A stretch of DNA of 10,151 nt from Micromonosporaceae bacterium. Lineage in GTDB: Bacteria > Actinomycetota > Actinomycetes > Mycobacteriales > Micromonosporaceae. Of this stretch, positions 2,935-10,109 are shown one piece after another. Every line of letters begins with the position of its first letter. Position 1 is the first letter of the stretch. Below the pieces are notes generated by a model. It searched no databases. It was given only the letters and a program-made list of their open reading frames with translations, and was not told where the DNA came from. Location: assembly GCA_050701695.1 (NCBI GenBank), contig JBOGDE010000212.1:1-10151 (forward strand), read 5' to 3'. The position numbers and the translations under genes are program-made.

Positions 2935-3714
2935 ATGCGCCGGAGTGGTACCAGGAGGGACCTCGAGGTGGTACTCGAGGCCGTCGACCAGGCGCACCAC
3001 AGGGCGGCGGGAGACGATGCCCCGGCCGCCCCCATCGTCCTGCCCCCTCACCGGGTGCCGGTCGCGGGGGAACCCCCTGAAGCTGCCGCGTCCCTGGATG
3101 CGTCACGCGGCAGCTTCGCCCACCACGCGGCCGGCACCCCCGGTCACCGGGCCGGCGGGGTGCTGGGCTGGATTTCGGCGCACACCCAGCTGGTGGTGAT
3201 CGCGGCGTTGGTGGTGATCGCGTCGGTCGCCACCGGCATGGTGGTGACCCACGGCGCGCGACAGCTCGACGTCGCGCCGCGGGACGGCACCACGCCGTAC
3301 CTCGCGGTCGCCCCGAGCGGTCCGGTGCGGCCGCCGGCAAAGCCGGCGCCGGTGTCCGGCCAGCCGGAGGCCGACACCGCGGTACCCGCACCGCCTCCCG
3401 CCGCGCCGAATCCCACGCGGCCCACCGGTCAGCCGGAGGCGGCGGTGCCGGCCGTACCCCCAGGGGCCGACGGGTCGCCCGAGGTGGGTAGGTCGCCCGA
3501 GGTGGGTGAGGTGCCGCCGGTGCCCGAGCCCGACGATTCGGTGACCGAGCCGCCGGCGATGCCCACGCCGCCCGGCTGGTGGTGCCCCGCCGGCATGAAG
3601 CGGTACTTCGGACAGTGCGTGGTGCGCGTACCCCGGCTCCCCACGCCCCAGTTCCCGACACCGCGGCCACCGCCGCCGCCGGAGCCCGACGTGTCAGGAG
3701 TCTGGCCGCAGTAG
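2935..3714 (+). CDS. Proline-rich single-pass membrane protein with a C-terminal Cys pair (anti-sigma-factor-like architecture; function unknown)
   Basis: The start ATG at 2935 is preceded by GGAGG (2924-2928). The product has an ~80-aa basic N-terminal segment, then one hydrophobic helix (LGWISAHTQLVVIAALVVIASVATGMVV), then a ~140-aa Pro/Ala/Glu-rich low-complexity region. That region contains internal repeats: GQPEA x2, and GSPEVG/RSPEVG encoded by an 18-bp tandem duplication at 3473-3508. It ends WWCPAGMKRYFGQCVVRVP plus a PPPPEP tail. Coding is supported by third-position GC bias and the RBS. The low-complexity content lowers confidence. Confidence 0.6.
   Translation: MRRSGTRRDLEVVLEAVDQAHHRAAGDDAPAAPIVLPPHRVPVAGEPPEAAASLDASRGSFAHHAAGTPGHRAGGVLGWISAHTQLVVIAALVVIASVATGMVVTHGARQLDVAPRDGTTPYLAVAPSGPVRPPAKPAPVSGQPEADTAVPAPPPAAPNPTRPTGQPEAAVPAVPPGADGSPEVGRSPEVGEVPPVPEPDDSVTEPPAMPTPPGWWCPAGMKRYFGQCVVRVPRLPTPQFPTPRPPPPPEPDVSGVWPQ
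3473..3508 (+). repeat. 18-bp tandem direct repeat x2 (GGTCGCCCGAGGTGGGTA / GGTCGCCCGAGGTGGGTG) inside the Pro-rich gene
   Basis: 17 of 18 positions are identical. The repeat encodes the GSPEVG-RSPEVG duplication. Confidence 0.8.
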
Positions 3715-4374
3715 GGGCGGGTGCAGCCGGGTCGCCTGGCCCCGGCGGAACAGCTGGGCCGGACGTCCCCGGTCCCCGGTCGCGGTCTGGTCGGTCGCGA
3801 TCACGAAACCCGGGGTACCGGTCACCTTGCGGTGGAAGTTGCGGGGATCCAGCGGTACGCCCCAGACGACCTCGTACACCCGGCGGAGCTGGCCGACCGT
3901 GAACGCGGCCGGGCAGAACGCGGCGGCGAGCGGGGTGTACTCCAGCTTGGCGCGGGCGCGCTCCACGCCGTCGGTGAGGATCCGGTGGTGGTCGAAGGCG
4001 AGGCGGGTGCGGGTCAGGTCGGCGACGGGTCGCCACCGCGCCTCGGCGGCGTCGGAGCCGGCGGTCGGGGCGGGCAGGTCGGGCAGCAGCGCGAGGTACG
4101 CCACGGTGACCACCCGCATCCGTGGATCCCGCTCCGGGGCGCCGTAGCTGGCGAGCTGCTCCAGATGGCCGGCCTCGGCGCCGATCCCGGTCTCCTCGGC
4201 CAGCTCGCGCGCGGCCGCGTCGGGCAGGTCCTCGTCCGGTAGCACGAAGCCGCCGGGCAGCGCCCACTTCCCTTGGTACGGGGGGATGCCGCGACGTACC
4301 AGCAGGGCTTGCAGAGCGTCGTCGCGGACCGTGAGCACCACCAGGTCGACGGTGACCGCTGTCTTTTTCGTCAT
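3694..4374 (-). CDS. Nudix hydrolase domain protein with C-terminal winged-helix domain (NrtR-family ADP-ribose-responsive transcriptional regulator-like)
   Basis: The 226-aa ORF is MTKKTAVTVDLVVLTVRDD... It carries a Nudix box, GGFVLPDEDLPDAAARELAEETGI, matching Gx5Ex7REuxEExGu. The C-terminal half (FTVGQLRRVYEVVWGVPLDPRNFHRKV...) resembles the NrtR wHTH domain. The ATG at 4374 is preceded by GGAGGTG, though with a longish ~11-nt spacer. The 3' end overlaps the convergent 2935-3714 gene by 21 bp. Confidence 0.82.
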   Translation of the reverse strand: MTKKTAVTVDLVVLTVRDDALQALLVRRGIPPYQGKWALPGGFVLPDEDLPDAAARELAEETGIGAEAGHLEQLASYGAPERDPRMRVVTVAYLALLPDLPAPTAGSDAAEARWRPVADLTRTRLAFDHHRILTDGVERARAKLEYTPLAAAFCPAAFTVGQLRRVYEVVWGVPLDPRNFHRKVTGTPGFVIATDQTATGDRGRPAQLFRRGQATRLHPPLLRPDS

Positions 4375-4399
4375 GTTGACGAGAACACCTCCGGCTGAT

Positions 4400-4418
4400 T
4401 ATCGTCACTGTGACGATA
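4400..4418. promoter_or_regulatory. Perfect 19-bp palindrome TATCGTCACTGTGACGATA; candidate operator (most plausibly for the adjacent NrtR-like regulator) within the divergent promoter region
   Basis: I verified every base pair of the inverted repeat around the centre at T4409. It sits in a relatively AT-rich island (about 4396-4423, roughly 43% GC in a ~70% GC background). The island fills most of the 63-bp gap between the divergent starts at 4374 (minus) and 4438 (plus). A plausible sigma70-type promoter for the + operon is -35 TTGACG at 4376-4381, an 18-bp spacer, then -10 TATCGT at 4400-4405 (TANNNT). That placement would put the palindrome over the -10 and TSS. Confidence 0.5.
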
Positions 4419-4437
4419 TAACACGGAGGACGGGATC

Positions 4438-5493
4438 ATGGCAGACATCACGAGGTTCCCGCCGGTACGGCACCTGCGCGGCGGTGCCACCAGCTGGGTA
4501 CGGCACATGTCCGGCGGCACGGTGCGCCACGAGGGCGTCGGGCTGGCGTTCTGGTTCTGGCCGCGCACTGCGGTGCTCTCCGAGGTGCCGATCGACGACC
4601 GGGAGCTGCCGCTGCTGTTCCACGCGCGTACCGCCGACTTCGCCGACATCACGGTGCAGGCGACCGTGACCTACCGGGTGGCCTCGCCGGAGCTGGCGGC
4701 GCAGCGGCTCGACTTCGGCATCCACCCCGCCTCCGGGCTGTGGACCGGTCAGCCGCTGGACCAGCTCGCCACCGTGCTCGCCGAGCTGGCGCAGCAGCCG
4801 GCGCTCGATCTGGTCGCCGGGCTCGGCCTCGCCGATGCGGTCGCCGCCGTCACCCCGGTACGTGAGGCGATCACCGCCGCACTCGCCGCCGATCCCCGGC
4901 TGGCCGAGGTCGGCGTCACCGTGGTCGGGGTACGGGTGGTGGCGATCCGGCCCGAGCCCGAGCTGGAGCGGGCGCTGCAGACACCGACCCGGGAAGGCGT
5001 ACAGGCCGAAGCGGACCGGGCCACGTACGCCCGCCGGGCGCAGGCCGTGCAGCGGGAACGGGCAATCGCCGAGAACGAGCTGCAGAACCAGATCGAGCTG
5101 GCCCGCCGGCAGGAGCAGCTGGTCGAGCAGCAGGGCGCCAACTCCCGCCGGGAAGCCGAGCTTCGGTCGGCGTCCGAACTGGTCAAGGCCCAGGGGGTCG
5201 CCGAACGCGACATGGTCGCCGCGCAGGGCGCCGCCGAGCGGGAACGGCTCACCTCCGAGGCGAAGGCGCACGCCAAGCGGGTGGTCGGCGCCGCCGCGGC
5301 CGAGGCCGAGCAGGCCTGGGTCGCCGCGTACGCCGACGTGCCGATGGCACTGATCGCTCGGGAGATCTCGGCCAAGCTGCCACAGATCGGCGCGCTCACC
5401 ATCACCCCCGACGTGGTCACCGCCCTGCTGGAGAAGCTCGCCACCGGGGTACCGGCTTCCGCTGGGGCACCGGCTCCCGGGAGCCAGCGATGA
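4438..5493 (+). CDS. SPFH/band-7 (stomatin/flotillin-like) domain protein, apparently lacking an N-terminal transmembrane segment, with a long C-terminal coiled-coil
   Basis: The 351-aa ORF has the band-7 signature ...FADITVQATVTYRV.... A Glu/Ala/Arg/Gln-rich helical region follows (ERAIAENELQNQIELARRQEQLVEQQGANSRREAELRS...), typical of SPFH C-terminal oligomerisation segments. A strong RBS, GGAGGA (4425-4430), lies 7 nt before the ATG. Confidence 0.85.
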   Translation: MADITRFPPVRHLRGGATSWVRHMSGGTVRHEGVGLAFWFWPRTAVLSEVPIDDRELPLLFHARTADFADITVQATVTYRVASPELAAQRLDFGIHPASGLWTGQPLDQLATVLAELAQQPALDLVAGLGLADAVAAVTPVREAITAALAADPRLAEVGVTVVGVRVVAIRPEPELERALQTPTREGVQAEADRATYARRAQAVQRERAIAENELQNQIELARRQEQLVEQQGANSRREAELRSASELVKAQGVAERDMVAAQGAAERERLTSEAKAHAKRVVGAAAAEAEQAWVAAYADVPMALIAREISAKLPQIGALTITPDVVTALLEKLATGVPASAGAPAPGSQR

Positions 5494-5567
5494 GCGAGCT
5501 TGCGAGCGAATTGTCGGCACAGTGCCTGCGCGAAGCGCCGCCCGAGCGAAGCGAGGGTGTGCGGTGA
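5490..5567 (+). CDS. Possible 25-codon micro-ORF (MSELASELSAQCLREAPPERSEGVR) bridging the SPFH and kinase genes
   Basis: The ATG at 5490 overlaps the SPFH stop as ATGA (5490-5493). The TGA at 5565-5567 overlaps the downstream GTG start as GTGA (5564-5567). This could be chance. It has no RBS of its own. It is purely an observation from the sequence. Confidence 0.2.
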   Translation: MSELASELSAQCLREAPPERSEGVR

Positions 5568-6487
5568 GTCTGCTGCCCCGGGTGGTGGTGGTCCACCGCC
5601 GCAGTGAGTACGACGAGCTGCTCGCCCGGCACGGCACGCCGGGCGCAGCGGCGTACTTCCTGAGGCAGCGGGGGCGTTCGCTCGACGACGTGACCGTCCG
5701 GCACGAGGCGTTGACGGAGGCGCTGGCGGCGGTGGCGGCGGCCGTACCGGCGGACTGGCGGCGCGGATCGGTGCGGCGCGAGGACCTGCCCCGGTTCCTG
5801 TTCGGGCCCGAAGACATCGTGGTGACCGTCGGCCAGGACGGGCTGGTCGCCAACGTCGCGAAGTATCTCGACGGGCAGCCGGTGGTCGGTGTCGACCCGG
5901 AGTCCGGCCGCAACCCCGGCGTGCTGGCCCGGCACGCCGCCGGCGCGGTCGGCGAGCTGCTGCGCGCGGTCGCCGCCGGGAGTGCCGAGACGCAGCAGCG
6001 CACCATGGTCGAGGCCGAGCTGGACGACGGCCAGACCCTGTACGGCCTCAACGAGATCTACGTCGGTCACGCCGGCCACCAGTCGGCCCGGTACGTCGTG
6101 TCTGTAGCGGGGACTGCCGCTCGCACCGTGGGTCGTACGGGGGCCACGCGGCGCGAGCGGCAGTCCTCCTCCGGGATCGTGATCGGGACCGGCACCGGCG
6201 CCACCGGCTGGTGCGCCTCGATCGCGGGCGAGCGCGCGACGCCGCCCGCGCTGCCGGCACCCGGGGCCGCCACACTGTGCTGGTTCGTACGGGAGGCCTG
6301 GCCCTCGCCGGTCACCGGCACCAGCCTGACCGGCGGCGTGCTGGCCGAGGGGGAGTCGCTGGAGGTGGCCTGCGAGAGCGAACGGCTGGTGGCGTTCGCC
6401 GACGGGCTGGAAGCCGATCATCTGGCGCTCACCTGGGGTCAGCGGCTCACCGTACGGGTCTCCTCCCGCCGGCTCAACCTGGTCTGA
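5564..6487 (+). CDS. Atypical ATP-NAD kinase-fold protein (NAD kinase / diacylglycerol-kinase catalytic superfamily), non-canonical GQDG in place of GGDG
   Basis: The product carries VVTVGQDGLVANVAKYL (compare NAD kinase GGDGT[LM]L), YGLNEIYVGH (compare the NE[VI] motif) and SGIVIGTGTGATGWCASIAGE (compare DG...STPTGSTAYSLSAGGP). I chose the GTG at 5564 because GAGGG sits 6 nt upstream. An in-frame GTG at 5522, the ORF-track start, is the alternative. The gene lies in the same operon as the SPFH gene. Confidence 0.72.
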   Translation: MSLLPRVVVVHRRSEYDELLARHGTPGAAAYFLRQRGRSLDDVTVRHEALTEALAAVAAAVPADWRRGSVRREDLPRFLFGPEDIVVTVGQDGLVANVAKYLDGQPVVGVDPESGRNPGVLARHAAGAVGELLRAVAAGSAETQQRTMVEAELDDGQTLYGLNEIYVGHAGHQSARYVVSVAGTAARTVGRTGATRRERQSSSGIVIGTGTGATGWCASIAGERATPPALPAPGAATLCWFVREAWPSPVTGTSLTGGVLAEGESLEVACESERLVAFADGLEADHLALTWGQRLTVRVSSRRLNLV

Positions 6488-6513
6488 GCGCGGCACGCGG
6501 ACCCGCACGCAGG

Positions 6514-7053
6514 TCAGGCCAGCAGCTCGCGGGGCCGTACGGTGACCTGGCCGGGGCCGAAGCTGATGGTGGCTTCATCGTCGGGGCCGAGCTGGAGCCG
6601 TTCGGCGTAGCCGTGGCCCTCCAGCTCGAAGACCAGCAGCTCGGGGCCCTCCGGGTCGATGATCCAGTAGCGCGGCAGTCCGGCGGCGGCGTACTTGCCG
6701 AACTTGCGGACCAGGTCGGCGGCGCGGTCCGTGGAGAGCACCTCGACGGCCAGATGTGGGGTGCCGTGGAACCGCTTGTCCTCCCCAGCCTCGTCGAAGA
6801 CGATCACGTCGGAGCCGAACTCGTCCGCGCCAGGTTTCCAGCCCCAGCTCATCCGAGCCCGCACACCCGGTGGCGTGGCCGCGTCGATCACCTACCACAA
6901 CCTTGCGCAGATGTCCTGGTGCCGCCCGCTGGGCATCGGGGACATCACGAGGCATCCGTCGATGTACTCGCCACGCACATCGGGGCCGAGGGCTTCGTAT
7001 TCGTCCCACGACATGGGGATGCGGTGTGCCTCGTCCACCGCGGGTCGCGCCAT
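6514..7053 (-). pseudogene. Uma2-family (DUF820) PD-(D/E)xK-type putative endonuclease interrupted by a single in-frame TAG (amber) codon
   Basis: The N-terminal part (7053..6895) reads [53 protein letters not shown], then TAG at 6894..6892. The same reading frame (all positions 0 mod 3) continues directly as VIDAATPPGV...FHGTPHLAVEVLSTDRAADLVRKFGKYAAAGLPRYWIIDPEGPELLVFEL...*. Both halves carry Uma2 hallmarks: (Y/W)xxxDGxL..MSP at the N-terminus and PDLAVEVLS...Y...G(V/L)PEYW(L/I)(V/I)DP at the C-terminus. The ATG at 7053 is preceded by GAGGAGG. The 13-nt spacing is longish. Confidence 0.8.
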
Positions 7054-7220: not shown

Positions 7221-7634
7221 ATGACGATCGCAGCCTCCCGCGCGGGTAGCGCGGTGACCGCCACACCCGCCGCTCCCCACCAGGAGGCCGAGCGGCACTT
7301 CGCGGGGTTGCTCGCGTACGAGACCGACTGCTGGGACGTGCACGACGCGTACGCCCAGGGCGCCGTCGACTTCGTGCTGCTCGACGTCCGCGGCCCCGAG
7401 TTGTACGCCGCGGGCCACGTACCGGGGGCGGTGAACCTGCCACACGGACGGATCGTCGAACGGAACCTGGTGGCGTACCCACCGGAGACGCTGTTCGTCG
7501 TCTACTGCGCGGGGCCGCACTGCAACGGGGCGGACAAGGCGGCGCTGCGGCTGGCGCGGCTCGGGCGGCCGGTGAAGAAGATGATCGGCGGGGTCACCGG
7601 GTGGCTCGACGAGGGCTTCAGGCTGGAGCCGTGA
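7221..7634 (+). CDS. Single-domain rhodanese-like sulfurtransferase
   Basis: The 137-aa product contains ...VDFVLLDVRGPELYAAGHVPGAVNLPHG...LFVVYCAGPHCNGADKAALRLARLGRPVKKMIGGVTGWLDEGF, with the active-site Cys in VYCAG. An in-frame TAG at 7209-7211 leaves the ATG at 7221 as the only possible start. There is no convincing RBS (GGCGG only), so the transcript may be leaderless or short-leadered. Confidence 0.8.
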   Translation: MTIAASRAGSAVTATPAAPHQEAERHFAGLLAYETDCWDVHDAYAQGAVDFVLLDVRGPELYAAGHVPGAVNLPHGRIVERNLVAYPPETLFVVYCAGPHCNGADKAALRLARLGRPVKKMIGGVTGWLDEGFRLEP

Positions 7635-7724: not shown

Positions 7725-8642
7725 ATGCGAAGGCCGTTGACCGCACTGCTGCTGCTCGCCGCCGTCGCGTTCGTACCCAGCGCCGCATCCGCGCAGGTCG
7801 GCGGCGGGTTGACCGAGGGGTGCCTGTACACCGTCGACTCGGGGGAGGTGCCCGAGATGGCGCGGGGCGAGGGCAGTACTCCGCGTGAGCCCGAGCTGCG
7901 CATGACGTACCAGGAGCTGCCCGACAGCGCCAAGGGCAAGGGCAAGAAGTGGAGCAGCATCGTCACCGTGCCGGTGTGGTTCCACGTGGTGCACGACAAC
8001 GGGGTCGGCAACGTCTCCGACGCCGACATCGCGCGCCAGATCCGGATCATGAACAACGGCTACTCCGGGGCGTACGGCGGGTACGACCAGGGCTTCCGCT
8101 TCGAGCTGGTCGGCGTGACCCGTACCAACAACGCGGAGTGGTACAACGCCGGGCCGACCACGCCGGGTGAGCGCGCGATGAAGCAGGCGCTGCGGCGCGG
8201 CGACATGGGCACGCTGAACTACTACTCGACCACCGCCGGCCCGTACCTGGGCTGGGCGTACTACCCGGGGCTGCCGGACGCCACCGCCTACCTGGACGGG
8301 CTGGTCGTGGACTGGGAGTCGATGTACAAGACCTCCGACCGGTACGCCGGCCGCTACGACCTGGGCTTCACCGCGGTGCACGAGGTGGGGCACTGGTTCG
8401 CGCTGGCGCACACCTTCGACGGCGGCTGCAACGCGCACGGCGACCACGTCGACGACACCCCGGCGATGAAGGTGCCGACCAGCGGCTGCCCGGCCGACGG
8501 CACCAAGGACACCTGCCCGAGGGACCCGGGCTTCGACCCGATCCACAACTTCATGGACTACTCGACCGACTACTGCTACGAGGAGCTGACCCAGGGCCAG
8601 GCGGAGCGTTCCCGCGACTACTGGCTGGAGTTCCGCGCCTGA
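7725..8642 (+). CDS. Secreted zinc metalloprotease, peptidase family M43 (pappalysin/ulilysin-type metzincin)
   Basis: A signal peptide, MRRPLTALLLLAAVAFVPSAASA-QV, is present. The zinc-binding motif HEVGHWFALAHTF is at 8379-8411. A Met-turn, NFMDYS, and several Cys residues suggest disulfides. AGGAGGA (7714-7720) lies 4 nt before the ATG. Confidence 0.85.
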   Translation: MRRPLTALLLLAAVAFVPSAASAQVGGGLTEGCLYTVDSGEVPEMARGEGSTPREPELRMTYQELPDSAKGKGKKWSSIVTVPVWFHVVHDNGVGNVSDADIARQIRIMNNGYSGAYGGYDQGFRFELVGVTRTNNAEWYNAGPTTPGERAMKQALRRGDMGTLNYYSTTAGPYLGWAYYPGLPDATAYLDGLVVDWESMYKTSDRYAGRYDLGFTAVHEVGHWFALAHTFDGGCNAHGDHVDDTPAMKVPTSGCPADGTKDTCPRDPGFDPIHNFMDYSTDYCYEELTQGQAERSRDYWLEFRA

Positions 8643-8704: not shown

Positions 8705-8776
8705 CCGGGGCCGGGGCCGGGGCCGGGGCCGGGGCCGGGGCCGGGGCTGGGGCTGGGGCTGGGGCTGGGGCTGGGG
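8705..8776 (+). repeat. Hexanucleotide microsatellite (CCGGGG)7(CTGGGG)5, i.e. (GGGGCC)n/(GGGGCT)n; 12 consecutive G4 tracts on the + strand
   Basis: I counted units starting at 8705, 8711, 8717, 8723, 8729, 8735 and 8741 (CCGGGG), then 8747, 8753, 8759, 8765 and 8771 (CTGGGG). The repeat ends exactly at the stop codon (TGA at 8779..8777, minus strand) of the downstream convergent gene. Confidence 0.9.
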
Positions 8777-10022
8777 TCAGTCCTGGCCGCGGCGGGCGCG
8801 GTCGGCGAGCACCCACTCCAGGACAGCTTCCTCGTCCATCGGGTCCACCCCGTCGGCCACCATCCGGGACAGCATGTCGGTGACCGGCTCGCCGAGCGCC
8901 TCACCCGCCATCAGATCGGTGTACGGCACCACGAACTCGGTGATCGCGTGCCGGGTGGCCGCGATCGCCGGCACCGCCTCGTCGCGGACCCGCCCGGCGT
9001 ACGTGATGAACGCGTCGAGGATCTCCGGCAGCCATGGTGCCGCCCGGTGGCCGGGCGCGATCTGCCGCGGGGTCCAGTCCAGCAGGAACAGCTCCACCGC
9101 GGTCGGGCTCCAACGCAGCGGATCGCCGGTGTTGTCGTCGCAGCCGAAGTCGACCGCCGCGCGCGCCCCCCAGGCGATCACCTCGATGGCGGGCGGCTCC
9201 TGGCCGGGGCTCGACACCCCCACCAGCGTCGCCTCCGGCGCGTCCAGGAACGCCGCGACCACCACGTCTCGTTCCGCGTCGTCGAGCCGTCGCGGCCGCG
9301 GCGTCGGCTCTCCTTCCGGGAGTACGGCGAGCCGGGCCAGCGCGAAGCCCCGGTCCTCGTGGTACGTGTCGCTGTACGGCTCGGTCAGCTCGTCGGTGCG
9401 CCCCAGGTACGCGGTGGTGTCCGCGCGCAGCCGCCCGGCGTCCACCGTCTCGATCGTCAGCTCCGGGTCCTCGGCGCACTCGGTCTGCCAGGCGCCCACC
9501 ACCTGCGCGGCGGGCACTCCGACCGTGATGTCCTTGCAGCAGCCGAGGTTGTGGTCGAGCAGGTACGACACCGCGTGATCCGGCCCGCCCCGCTCCGGGT
9601 CGGGGTACTCGTACGTGGCGATGTACTGGGTCTGGTCGCCGTAGTTGTCGCGTACCGCCCAGGTGCCGGTGCAGGTCGCGGCGCCGGCGGAGTCGAGCCA
9701 CGCCGGGCCGGTCTTCGGCGCTTTCACCTGGTCCGGGACCACGGCGGCGAGGGCGGCGCGTACCCCCTGGGCCTCGCTGGTACGCCGTTTCGCCAAGTAG
9801 CCACCGAAGTCGGCGGCGAACTGGCGTACCGCGTCGGGGCCGTGGGAGTCGTCGGCGGCGGCGTACACCCCTCCCAGCAGCGCCGAGGCGGCGAGCTCGG
9901 CGTCGAGAGCGAGCGGCATCGCGGCGATCGGCGCGGCCTCTTTGAGGATCGCGCCGAAGACCAGGTCGGTGGGGCCGGCGGTGGACTCGGGCTGTGGGCG
10001 GCGCGGCATCCGGCCACCATAC
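8777..10022 (-). CDS. Hypothetical acidic protein (~415 aa), no recognisable domain
   Basis: The ORF is long, with strong third-position GC bias and protein-like composition: ...YIATYEYPDPERGGPDHAVSYLLDHNLGCCKDITVGVPAAQVVGAWQTECAEDPELTIETVD... I placed the start at the ATG at 10022..10020 (MPRRPQPESTAG...). The ORF-track alternative is the GTG at 10057. Neither has a strong RBS. The stop abuts the G-rich hexanucleotide repeat. Confidence 0.6.
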
Positions 10023-10109
10023 GCCGGGCGCTCACTCGATGTGGCTTGCGTCCTCACGCTCCAGCTCGACCAGCGACCGGACCTGGTCGTCGCCCAGTCG
10101 GCGTCCCGC

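Follow-up and report, generated by a model that had tools for sequence, protein, structure and literature searches.

We analysed DNA of 10,151 bp, a contig from a metagenome-assembled genome (MAG) of Micromonosporaceae, hereafter the window, with a GC content of approximately 0.72 along its whole length. The subject is a group of three genes arranged as a divergon. On the minus strand lies nrtR (3694-4374), which encodes a Nudix/NrtR regulator of 226 amino acids (aa) with the Pfam NUDIX and NrtR_WHD domains. On the plus strand, nrtX (4438-5493), encoding a 351-aa SPFH/Band-7 protein matched by Pfam Band_7, is followed by nrtY (5564-6487), which starts with GTG and encodes a 307-aa NADK2-like protein, assigned to the NAD-kinase fold by a family profile and by its predicted structure. 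The divergent gap between nrtR and nrtX occupies positions 4375-4437, exactly 63 bp. An earlier note on this DNA had given these gene boundaries, the 63-bp gap, a perfect 19-bp palindrome and an SPFH protein without transmembrane (TM) segments, and all of them are present in the sequence. Its three domain assignments also proved right, by Pfam for NUDIX/NrtR_WHD and Band_7, and by the profile, AlphaFold and Foldseek for the NAD-kinase fold.

The arrangement corresponds to a regulon catalogued by Rodionov et al. in 2008 (NAR 36:2047; PMC2330246). Table 1 of that paper gives nrtR<#>nrtX-nrtY for Frankia, Kineococcus and Proteus mirabilis, '...; #nrtX-nrtY' for Hahella chejuensis, and '#nrtR2; #nrtX-nrtY' for Streptomyces; nrtX and nrtY are listed there as genes of unknown function, with the pathway '?', in the groups Actinobacteria-2b and Gammaproteo-1a. 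The layouts that we found are the same, with divergons in Frankia torreyi (L083) and Proteus mirabilis (L090) and split loci in Streptomyces and Kitasatospora. Since the layouts in Frankia, Streptomyces/Kitasatospora and Proteus agree with the published ones, the module is the nrtR/nrtX-nrtY regulon. The locus is an orthologue of the divergon of group Actinobacteria-2b, nrtX being the SPFH gene and nrtY the kinase gene, an equation based on the gene arrangement in the named organisms and not on gene identifiers. The system is therefore already known, with no function assigned, and is not of a new kind, contrary to the earlier note, which had not recognised it as a described operon. In the papers searched we found no later use of the names nrtX and nrtY in this sense, other occurrences being unrelated strings, and no literature linking NrtR with SPFH proteins or SPFH proteins with 'NAD kinase'. 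A second actinobacterial 'nadK2' was reported in 2019 in Streptomyces, Amycolatopsis and Kribbella (PMC6675116); it may, subject to confirmation, be the same gene as nrtY.

The genome scan, with one genome per GTDB species, yielded 80 loci with 54-69% identity, all but one of them in Actinomycetota, from lineages including Micromonosporaceae, Glycomyces, Kribbella, Lentzea, Nocardioides, Paenarthrobacter, Frankia, Streptomyces, Kitasatospora and Acidimicrobiia. An orthologue of the SPFH gene lies directly upstream of the kinase gene in 79 of the 80 genome loci, the remaining locus having no upstream DNA; among the genomes sampled, nrtX and nrtY are an obligate pair. In 63 of these 80 loci the SPFH gene has a divergent nrtR orthologue beside it. 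The three genes form one functional unit, in agreement with the earlier note, and the adjacency is kept across phyla. All-against-all clustering of the flanking open reading frames (ORFs) revealed no additional conserved partner beyond the triad, the next cluster being represented in 10 of 86 loci, at varying positions.

The stop codon of the SPFH gene and the start codon of the kinase gene are separated by at most 10 nt in 64 of 84 loci, where the genes abut or overlap, and we therefore expect nrtX and nrtY to be translationally coupled. In the window they are bridged by a 25-codon ORF (5490-5567), which overlaps the SPFH stop codon as ATGA and the kinase start codon as GTGA. The earlier note had counted this micro-ORF as a member of the module, but it is not conserved, and we rejected it as a gene: in 85 related loci tblastn found nothing but scattered matches with E > 0.2, none of them syntenic. 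It reflects an unusually long nrtX-nrtY spacer, seen in this contig only. SPFH-kinase fusions were likewise rejected as Rosetta-stone evidence, one candidate (P0175) being a frameshift artefact and the other (P0197) a doubtful singleton, in which the junction deletes the first kinase strand.

Across Actinomycetota the identity declines with taxonomic distance, which fits vertical descent. In three Micromonospora/Melissospora genomes (L003, L019, L020) genes for the E1 alpha and beta subunits of a 2-oxoacid dehydrogenase lie on the same side of nrtR as in the window, and this local synteny supports vertical inheritance within Micromonosporaceae.

The triad was also found on a contig with a Bradyrhizobium-like kinase (79-83% identity to proteins of that genus), on the Rhizobium etli plasmid p42f, and in Proteus mirabilis (reached via the plasmid collection), where a Band_7 gene and an nrtY homolog lie downstream of nrtR; in a Lachnospiraceae genome the genes for Band_7, the kinase and NrtR are all on one strand. 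Homologues of the kinase are present on replicons of Roseomonas, Treponema, Ralstonia, Cupriavidus, Methylomonas, Providencia, Moraxella and Acinetobacter; the Acinetobacter copy, the only one of these with its neighbours checked, has a NUDIX gene annotated upstream.

In Gammaproteobacteria, nrtR and nrtY are immediate neighbours of tetR-tet(J) or tetR(H)-tet(H), namely in Proteus mirabilis (L090; NZ_OL790811.1, 2094-6828) and on plasmid pALWED1.1 of Acinetobacter lwoffii (L093; 3094-7841). The latter plasmid is predicted to be mobilizable, and no gene is annotated in the interval where nrtX would be expected. The nrtR/nrtX/nrtY module may have travelled with tetracycline-resistance determinants in this class.

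Predicted operators and candidate promoter

It is known that NrtR sites share a GT-N7-AC core within a palindrome of approximately 21 bp (PMC2330246). The palindrome in the shared promoter region of the window (4400-4418), the first predicted NrtR box, reads TATCGTCAC-T-GTGACGATA and is perfect, with 0 such palindromes expected in shuffled sequences. Written around the GT-N7-AC core it is TATCGTCA-CTG-TGACGATA, conforming to the consensus TATCGTCA-N3-TGACGATA; its centre is 29 nt upstream of the SPFH start codon. The second predicted box (4365-4385) is an imperfect palindrome, TTTTCGTCA-TGT-TGACGAGAA, with 8 of 9 positions complementary, and spans the start codon of nrtR (4372-4374). The distance between the boxes is 34 bp, centre to centre.

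We searched for matches to TATCGTCA-N3-TGACGATA (at least 13 of 16 positions) in the 200 nt upstream of the SPFH start codon in 79 loci. Such a match was found in 70 of them, and in 0 of 881 control windows taken from the same loci. Its centre is 21-40 nt upstream of the SPFH start codon in 58 of the 70 box-bearing loci, and 61 of the 70 also have a second site approximately 34 bp from the first. Thus, the suggestion of the earlier note that the palindrome is an operator is well borne out as a prediction.

The nine box-less loci (L015, L022, L028, L031, L039, L042, L044, L047, L059) all lack an adjacent nrtR as well; they come from Hamadaea, Aeromicrobium and Microbacteriaceae, where the SPFH-kinase pair is retained and adjacent nrtR and operator are both lost. 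Genes beside the nrtR-less loci encode a TMEM175-like channel, RDD, SnoaL-like, IMPDH-like and DUF488 proteins, and pyruvate carboxylase; we observed no pattern among these neighbours that would indicate an alternative regulator, the upstream genes being mutually unrelated. In four Kitasatospora loci (L036, L076, L082, L085) and one Streptomyces locus (L080), the box is present upstream of the SPFH gene with no adjacent nrtR, and in another Streptomyces locus without adjacent nrtR (L068) no palindromic match was found upstream of the SPFH gene.

A consensus scan for promoters yielded one sigma-70-like candidate on the plus strand (4376-4405), consisting of TTGACG (4376-4381), an 18-nt spacer and TATCGT (4400-4405). 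By consensus match, which is all that the scan considers, it is the sole such site in the region 3600-6700, with 0.0 expected in shuffled sequences. The -35-like hexamer TTGACG falls within box 2, and the -10-like hexamer TATCGT within box 1. Because the boxes cover both hexamers of the putative nrtXY promoter and the nrtR start codon, this geometry is consistent with repression of nrtXY and autoregulation of nrtR.

Protein products and neighbouring genes

The start of nrtY at 5564 is that of the NCBI gene call (P0001, 307 aa) and also fits the aligned homologues. The protein has no Pfam match and scores 25 bits with the NCBIfam NAD kinase models, the cut-offs of which are 219-386. A full HMMER search of 1.84 billion cluster representatives showed that the NrtY family comprises 1378 clusters at 50% identity (E <= 0.001), 202 of them at E <= 1e-30. 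The family ranges over Actinomycetota, Alpha-, Beta- and Gammaproteobacteria, Lachnospiraceae and Treponema. It reaches no curated Pfam or NCBIfam model at cut-off, PF01513 being weakly touched by 11 of 32 members, and its homologues are named in databases 'hypothetical protein', 'sugar kinase', 'NAD kinase' or 'inorganic polyphosphate/ATP-NAD kinase'.

In an alignment of 32 diverse members, with 33-72% identity to the NrtY of the window, the invariant positions are G90, G93, N97, N163, G168, Y177, S202, G204, G212, W216, S219, G258, D280 and G281. D92, at the position of the catalytic Asp of the GGDG motif, is near-invariant (at least 90% of members), and the glycines flanking it are invariant. 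The motifs of the NrtY of the window are VGQDG (in place of GGDG), LNE, SSSG, GTGTGATGW and FADG. Canonical NAD kinases have the loop GGDG(N/T) and the glycine-rich strand SDGLIISTPTGSTAY, NADK2 has GGDGT and KSSGLNLCTGTGSKAW, and NrtY has G-x-DGL-x-x-N and QSSSG-x-x-x-x-TG-x-G-x-TGW. With scores below the Pfam and NCBIfam thresholds and an altered GGDG, the kinase is not an ordinary ppnK product, as the earlier note had surmised.

When the family profile was compared with the PDB, the best match was human NADK2 (E 2e-23, 86 bits), in two stretches that include the N-terminal helical region, whereas bacterial and archaeal NAD kinases scored at most 42 bits. The reverse query, made with fragments of one NADK2 sequence only, gave 26-47.5 bits for 28 of the 32 NrtY members; with E. 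coli NadK it gave 23 bits, and no canonical NAD kinase in the PDB exceeded 24. Since the NrtY of this locus itself scores only 16 bits with the NADK2 segments, the relationship is visible at the level of the family. The AlphaFold model built from the 32-member alignment has a mean pLDDT of 93.5 and a pTM of 0.90. A Foldseek comparison of this model with the PDB gave NAD kinases only among the top 50 matches, the best being NADK2 (7r4j; E 2.1e-17, TM-score 0.72), while bacterial NAD kinases have TM-scores of 0.54-0.63. By sequence comparison and modelled fold, then, the human mitochondrial NADK2 is nearer to NrtY than are the canonical NadK/PpnK enzymes of bacteria.

The NrtY of the window also carries a lineage-specific 11-residue insertion, GTAARTVGRTG (residues ~187-197, positions ~6122-6154), which is absent from seven close homologues; the sole low-confidence stretch of the model (pLDDT 65-78) falls at the same place.

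NrtX matches Pfam Band_7 with E 3e-16 (60 bits, the cut-off being 23.6). No TM segment was detected in it, the highest Kyte-Doolittle mean over 19 residues being 1.63 and located in the SPFH domain. By hydrophobicity, a TM helix or hairpin is likewise absent from 16 orthologues from four phyla, which together with NrtX make 17 family members. According to the alignment, the family shares a conserved 20-aa N-terminal extension (MADITRxxxLRHLR...), the SPFH domain, then a long helix, and at the C-terminus the segment LPxIGxLTxTPD. In the AlphaFold model, which has a lower confidence (pLDDT 75) as it was built from close homologues only, the SPFH domain is followed by a single helix of ~115 residues (185-299). 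Foldseek matches of the model are HflK/C, erlin, prohibitin, stomatin, flotillin and the major vault protein (best E 2.9e-09). No NfeD domain and no protease partner were found among the proteins of the window.

The fold matches of NrtX include human vault cages solved with ADP-ribose (ADPR), ADP and PARP4 (9mxj, 9mxv, 9bw6). Among SPFH-like cages only that of the vault protein is soluble, and this protein is tied to ADPR biology; we treat this as a lead for NrtX only and not as evidence.

NrtR matches Pfam NUDIX with E 3.5e-23, and its C-terminal winged helix matches NrtR_WHD with E 3e-14 (53 bits, the cut-off being 27). It aligns, from residue 5 on, over the full length with PDB 3gz5, which we take to be the NrtR of Shewanella oneidensis, and with AraR (5bs6), in both cases with E 4.8e-31. 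With the NCBIfam equivalog NF050029 (ADPR-responsive repressor, NtrR model) it scores 142 bits, under the cut-off of 400, and the Proteus orthologue is also under it, with 267 bits. Both are thus members of the NrtR family and not equivalogs of the protein modelled by NF050029. The Nudix box of the window's NrtR, GGFVLPDEDLPDAAARELAEETGI (residues ~31-53, positions 4215-4283; signature GX5EX7REUXEEXGU), is intact, as it is in 61 of 69 NrtR orthologues, and is degenerate in the Proteus, Rhizobium, Bradyrhizobium-like and Lachnospiraceae NrtRs and in four actinobacterial loci. The two NrtRs characterised by Rodionov et al. had perturbed Nudix boxes and no activity (PMC2330246).

Of the other genes in the window, those for the E1 beta and alpha subunits of a 2-oxoacid dehydrogenase (Pfam) occupy 308-2724 on the minus strand. 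The gene of a proline-rich protein with one TM segment (2935-3714, plus strand) converges on nrtR with a 21-nt 3' overlap at 3694-3714; the protein has no family match and no homolog in the related loci. Downstream of nrtY are an ORF for a 125-aa Uma2 fragment (6514-6891, minus strand), a rhodanese gene (7221-7634, plus strand), an M43 peptidase gene (7725-8642, plus strand), all three identified by Pfam, and the gene of a 426-aa protein without a Pfam family match (8777-10057, minus strand). The Uma2 ORF covers only positions 59-160 of the 172-position Uma2 profile (E 8e-18) and was absent from all the related loci examined; it is an N-terminally truncated nuclease remnant, unrelated to the nrtR-nrtX-nrtY module. 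Between the end of the peptidase gene (8642) and the 3' end of the 426-aa gene there is a tandem repeat of the hexamer CCGGGG (12 copies, 8705-8776, 98% matches), which translates to PG/AP repeats within spurious long ORFs. Neither an Rfam family nor a tRNA was found in the window.

Proposed function

The earlier note would have given up its three-gene module in the face of a kinase gene that is simply the sole ppnK of the organism, with ordinary motifs, an SPFH-kinase adjacency not kept in relatives, or a regulator lacking a DNA-binding domain. None of the three was seen: the kinase motifs are atypical, the adjacency is conserved across phyla and the winged helix-turn-helix was found by HMM. 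The likeliest function of the module, which we favour with moderate confidence, is that of an auxiliary NAD(H) kinase derepressed by ADPR and co-expressed with a soluble SPFH scaffold.

In this scheme, NrtR dimers bound to the two boxes would repress both nrtXY and nrtR. ADPR, or a related adenine dinucleotide product such as 2'-phospho-ADP-ribose, would free NrtR from DNA, by analogy with other members of the family. Release by ADPR has been demonstrated in vitro for the Shewanella and Synechocystis NrtRs; DNA binding by the Shewanella protein is suppressed in vitro by ADPR, phospho-ADPR (pADPR), nicotinic acid adenine dinucleotide (NaAD) and its phosphorylated form (NaADP), NADH, NADPH as well as NADP, ADPR being the most effective (PMC2330246). 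NrtX and NrtY would then be produced in a fixed proportion by translational coupling, and NrtY would phosphorylate NAD(H) to NADP(H) as an inducible kinase besides the housekeeping ppnK product. NrtX may assemble into a ring or cage of the SPFH type, in which the kinase is held, confined or gated, much as HflK/C surrounds FtsH; the assembly would probably be soluble or only peripherally bound to the membrane. The net effect would be that signals of NAD(P) consumption raise the capacity for NADP(H) synthesis.

Several points weigh against this scheme. It is not obviously adaptive to induce an NAD-consuming kinase when ADPR signals the loss of NAD. Where NAD kinases have the second Gly of GGDG, a residue of the phosphate-donor loop, members of the NrtY family have Q, P, R, L or D, and hence the donor or acceptor specificity of NrtY may differ from that of NAD kinases; as the loop is altered in every family member, the substrate is the main uncertainty. 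In 2 of the 32 aligned members the Asp itself is out of register or missing. Gene order is the sole indication of contact between NrtX and NrtY, and the activities of both are predicted from sequences and models. The actinobacterial NrtR may be a bifunctional ADPR hydrolase and repressor, since with its Nudix box intact it may hydrolyse the ligand and not merely sense it.

The altered loop leads to the strongest of the alternatives, namely, that NrtY acts on another adenine nucleotide, converting the inducer ADPR to 2'-phospho-ADP-ribose or using a substrate of the NaAD/NaADP type, so that the operon recycles or disposes of an NAD breakdown product. We consider this possible but unlikely. ADPR bears the same adenosine 2'-OH group that NAD kinases phosphorylate; the GGDG loop is changed family-wide, and NrtY reaches no curated NAD kinase model. 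Moreover, operons under metabolite-sensing repressors often act on the effector, and AraR, of the NrtR family, controls arabinose utilisation (PMC4666351). On the other hand, the top 50 fold matches are all true NAD kinases, NrtY keeps the motifs that NAD kinases have in common (NE/ND, the C-terminal DG and a glycine-rich strand that ends in W), and NADK2, to which it is most closely related, has proven NAD kinase activity (PMC3535332).

Depletion of NAD is a frequent theme in defence, and the earlier note had raised the possibility of an NAD-targeting anti-phage or abortive-infection module. In PADLOC, the candidate PDC-S07 is matched weakly by the Nudix domain (E 6.5e-07) and PDC-S03 by the adjacent Uma2 fragment, and some gammaproteobacterial copies are plasmid-borne. 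However, the SPFH protein and the kinase have no PADLOC match, no homologue was found among 50,697 phage records, and Uma2 occurs in none of the related loci. The identity falls with taxonomic distance, as in vertical descent, the flanking genes are housekeeping ones that vary by lineage, and NrtR is of the classical type of repressor that responds to metabolites, with operators that are conserved; a role in defence is thus highly improbable.

Least probable of all is that nrtY is simply the housekeeping ppnK of the organism with an incidental SPFH neighbour, since, although some homologues are recorded under NAD kinase names, this is contradicted at the family level by 25 bits against equivalog cut-offs of 219-386, the absence of a Pfam match, the altered GGDG motif, the adjacency of the SPFH gene, seen in 79 of 80 genome loci as well as four further bacterial groups, and the separate ppnK of Streptomyces coelicolor, SCO1781, annotated as an NAD kinase (PMC8981147), in a genus for whose species nrtXY is given (PMC2330246). 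Probably, the same species carries both ppnK and nrtXY.

Significance and comparison with known systems

To the regulon as catalogued, the present analysis adds that nrtY belongs to an uncurated, phylum-spanning NADK2-like family, that nrtX encodes an SPFH protein without an anchor, that the two form an obligate pair in the sampled genomes, and that the actinobacterial operator can be defined. With nrtY regarded as the gene of a NADK2-like kinase, an auxiliary NAD(H) kinase under NrtR becomes a directly testable hypothesis on inducible NADP(H) supply; the module also offers a tractable bacterial system in which effects of an SPFH assembly on a soluble enzyme could be studied, and NrtY is a candidate bacterial relative of mitochondrial NADK2.

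A broader reading, which we put forward tentatively and regard as doubtful, is that proteins of the NrtY type constitute a second, phylum-spanning class of bacterial NAD kinases, the closest prokaryotic kin and a possible source of NADK2/NADK3, with the SPFH partner forming a soluble vault-like cage that gates NADP(H) synthesis on ADPR. Bacteria are in general treated as organisms with a single NAD kinase (PMC9245612), Streptomyces coelicolor likewise (PMC8981147), and the provenance of the eukaryotic mitochondrial/peroxisomal NADK2/NADK3 clade has been called uncertain (PMC6675116). If the broader reading holds, the cage would be the first known case of a soluble metabolic kinase controlled by an SPFH assembly.

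As in the 2008 regulon, nrtR of the window is divergent from a two-gene operon, with the boxes between them having the GT-N7-AC core.

Of the SPFH complexes, HflK/C-FtsH, QmcA-YbbJ, stomatin, prohibitin, flotillin, erlin and the vault are builders of rings or cages. NrtX resembles them in having an SPFH domain, a very long helix and a conserved C-terminal segment, and its gene, too, adjoins the gene of a presumed partner enzyme. Unlike the matched families, all of which are anchored except for the vault protein, NrtX has no membrane anchor, and its presumed partner is a soluble nucleotide kinase instead of an NfeD protein or a protease.

With canonical NadK/PpnK (PF01513 and PF20143) NrtY shares the two-domain fold, a near-invariant Asp at the position of the catalytic one, the NE/ND motif and the C-terminal DG. 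It differs from them in scoring under the Pfam and NCBIfam thresholds, in the replaced glycine of GGDG and in an extra N-terminal helical hairpin; the genomic context is also different, as the canonical nadK of E. coli is situated between grpE and recN.

The closest likeness is to NADK2 of the eukaryotic mitochondrial clade (C5orf33; PDB 7r4j, 7n29). The two share SSG and TG-x-G-x-x-x-W, where canonical enzymes have (S/A)DG and TPTGSTAY, and the N-terminal helical region of NrtY aligns with NADK2 and not with bacterial NadK. At the same time, NADK2 retains GGDGT, versus G-x-D-G-L in NrtY, and has a long animal-specific dimerisation insert (PMC9245612), whereas NrtY is bacterial, is predicted to be regulated by NrtR, and is paired with an SPFH protein.

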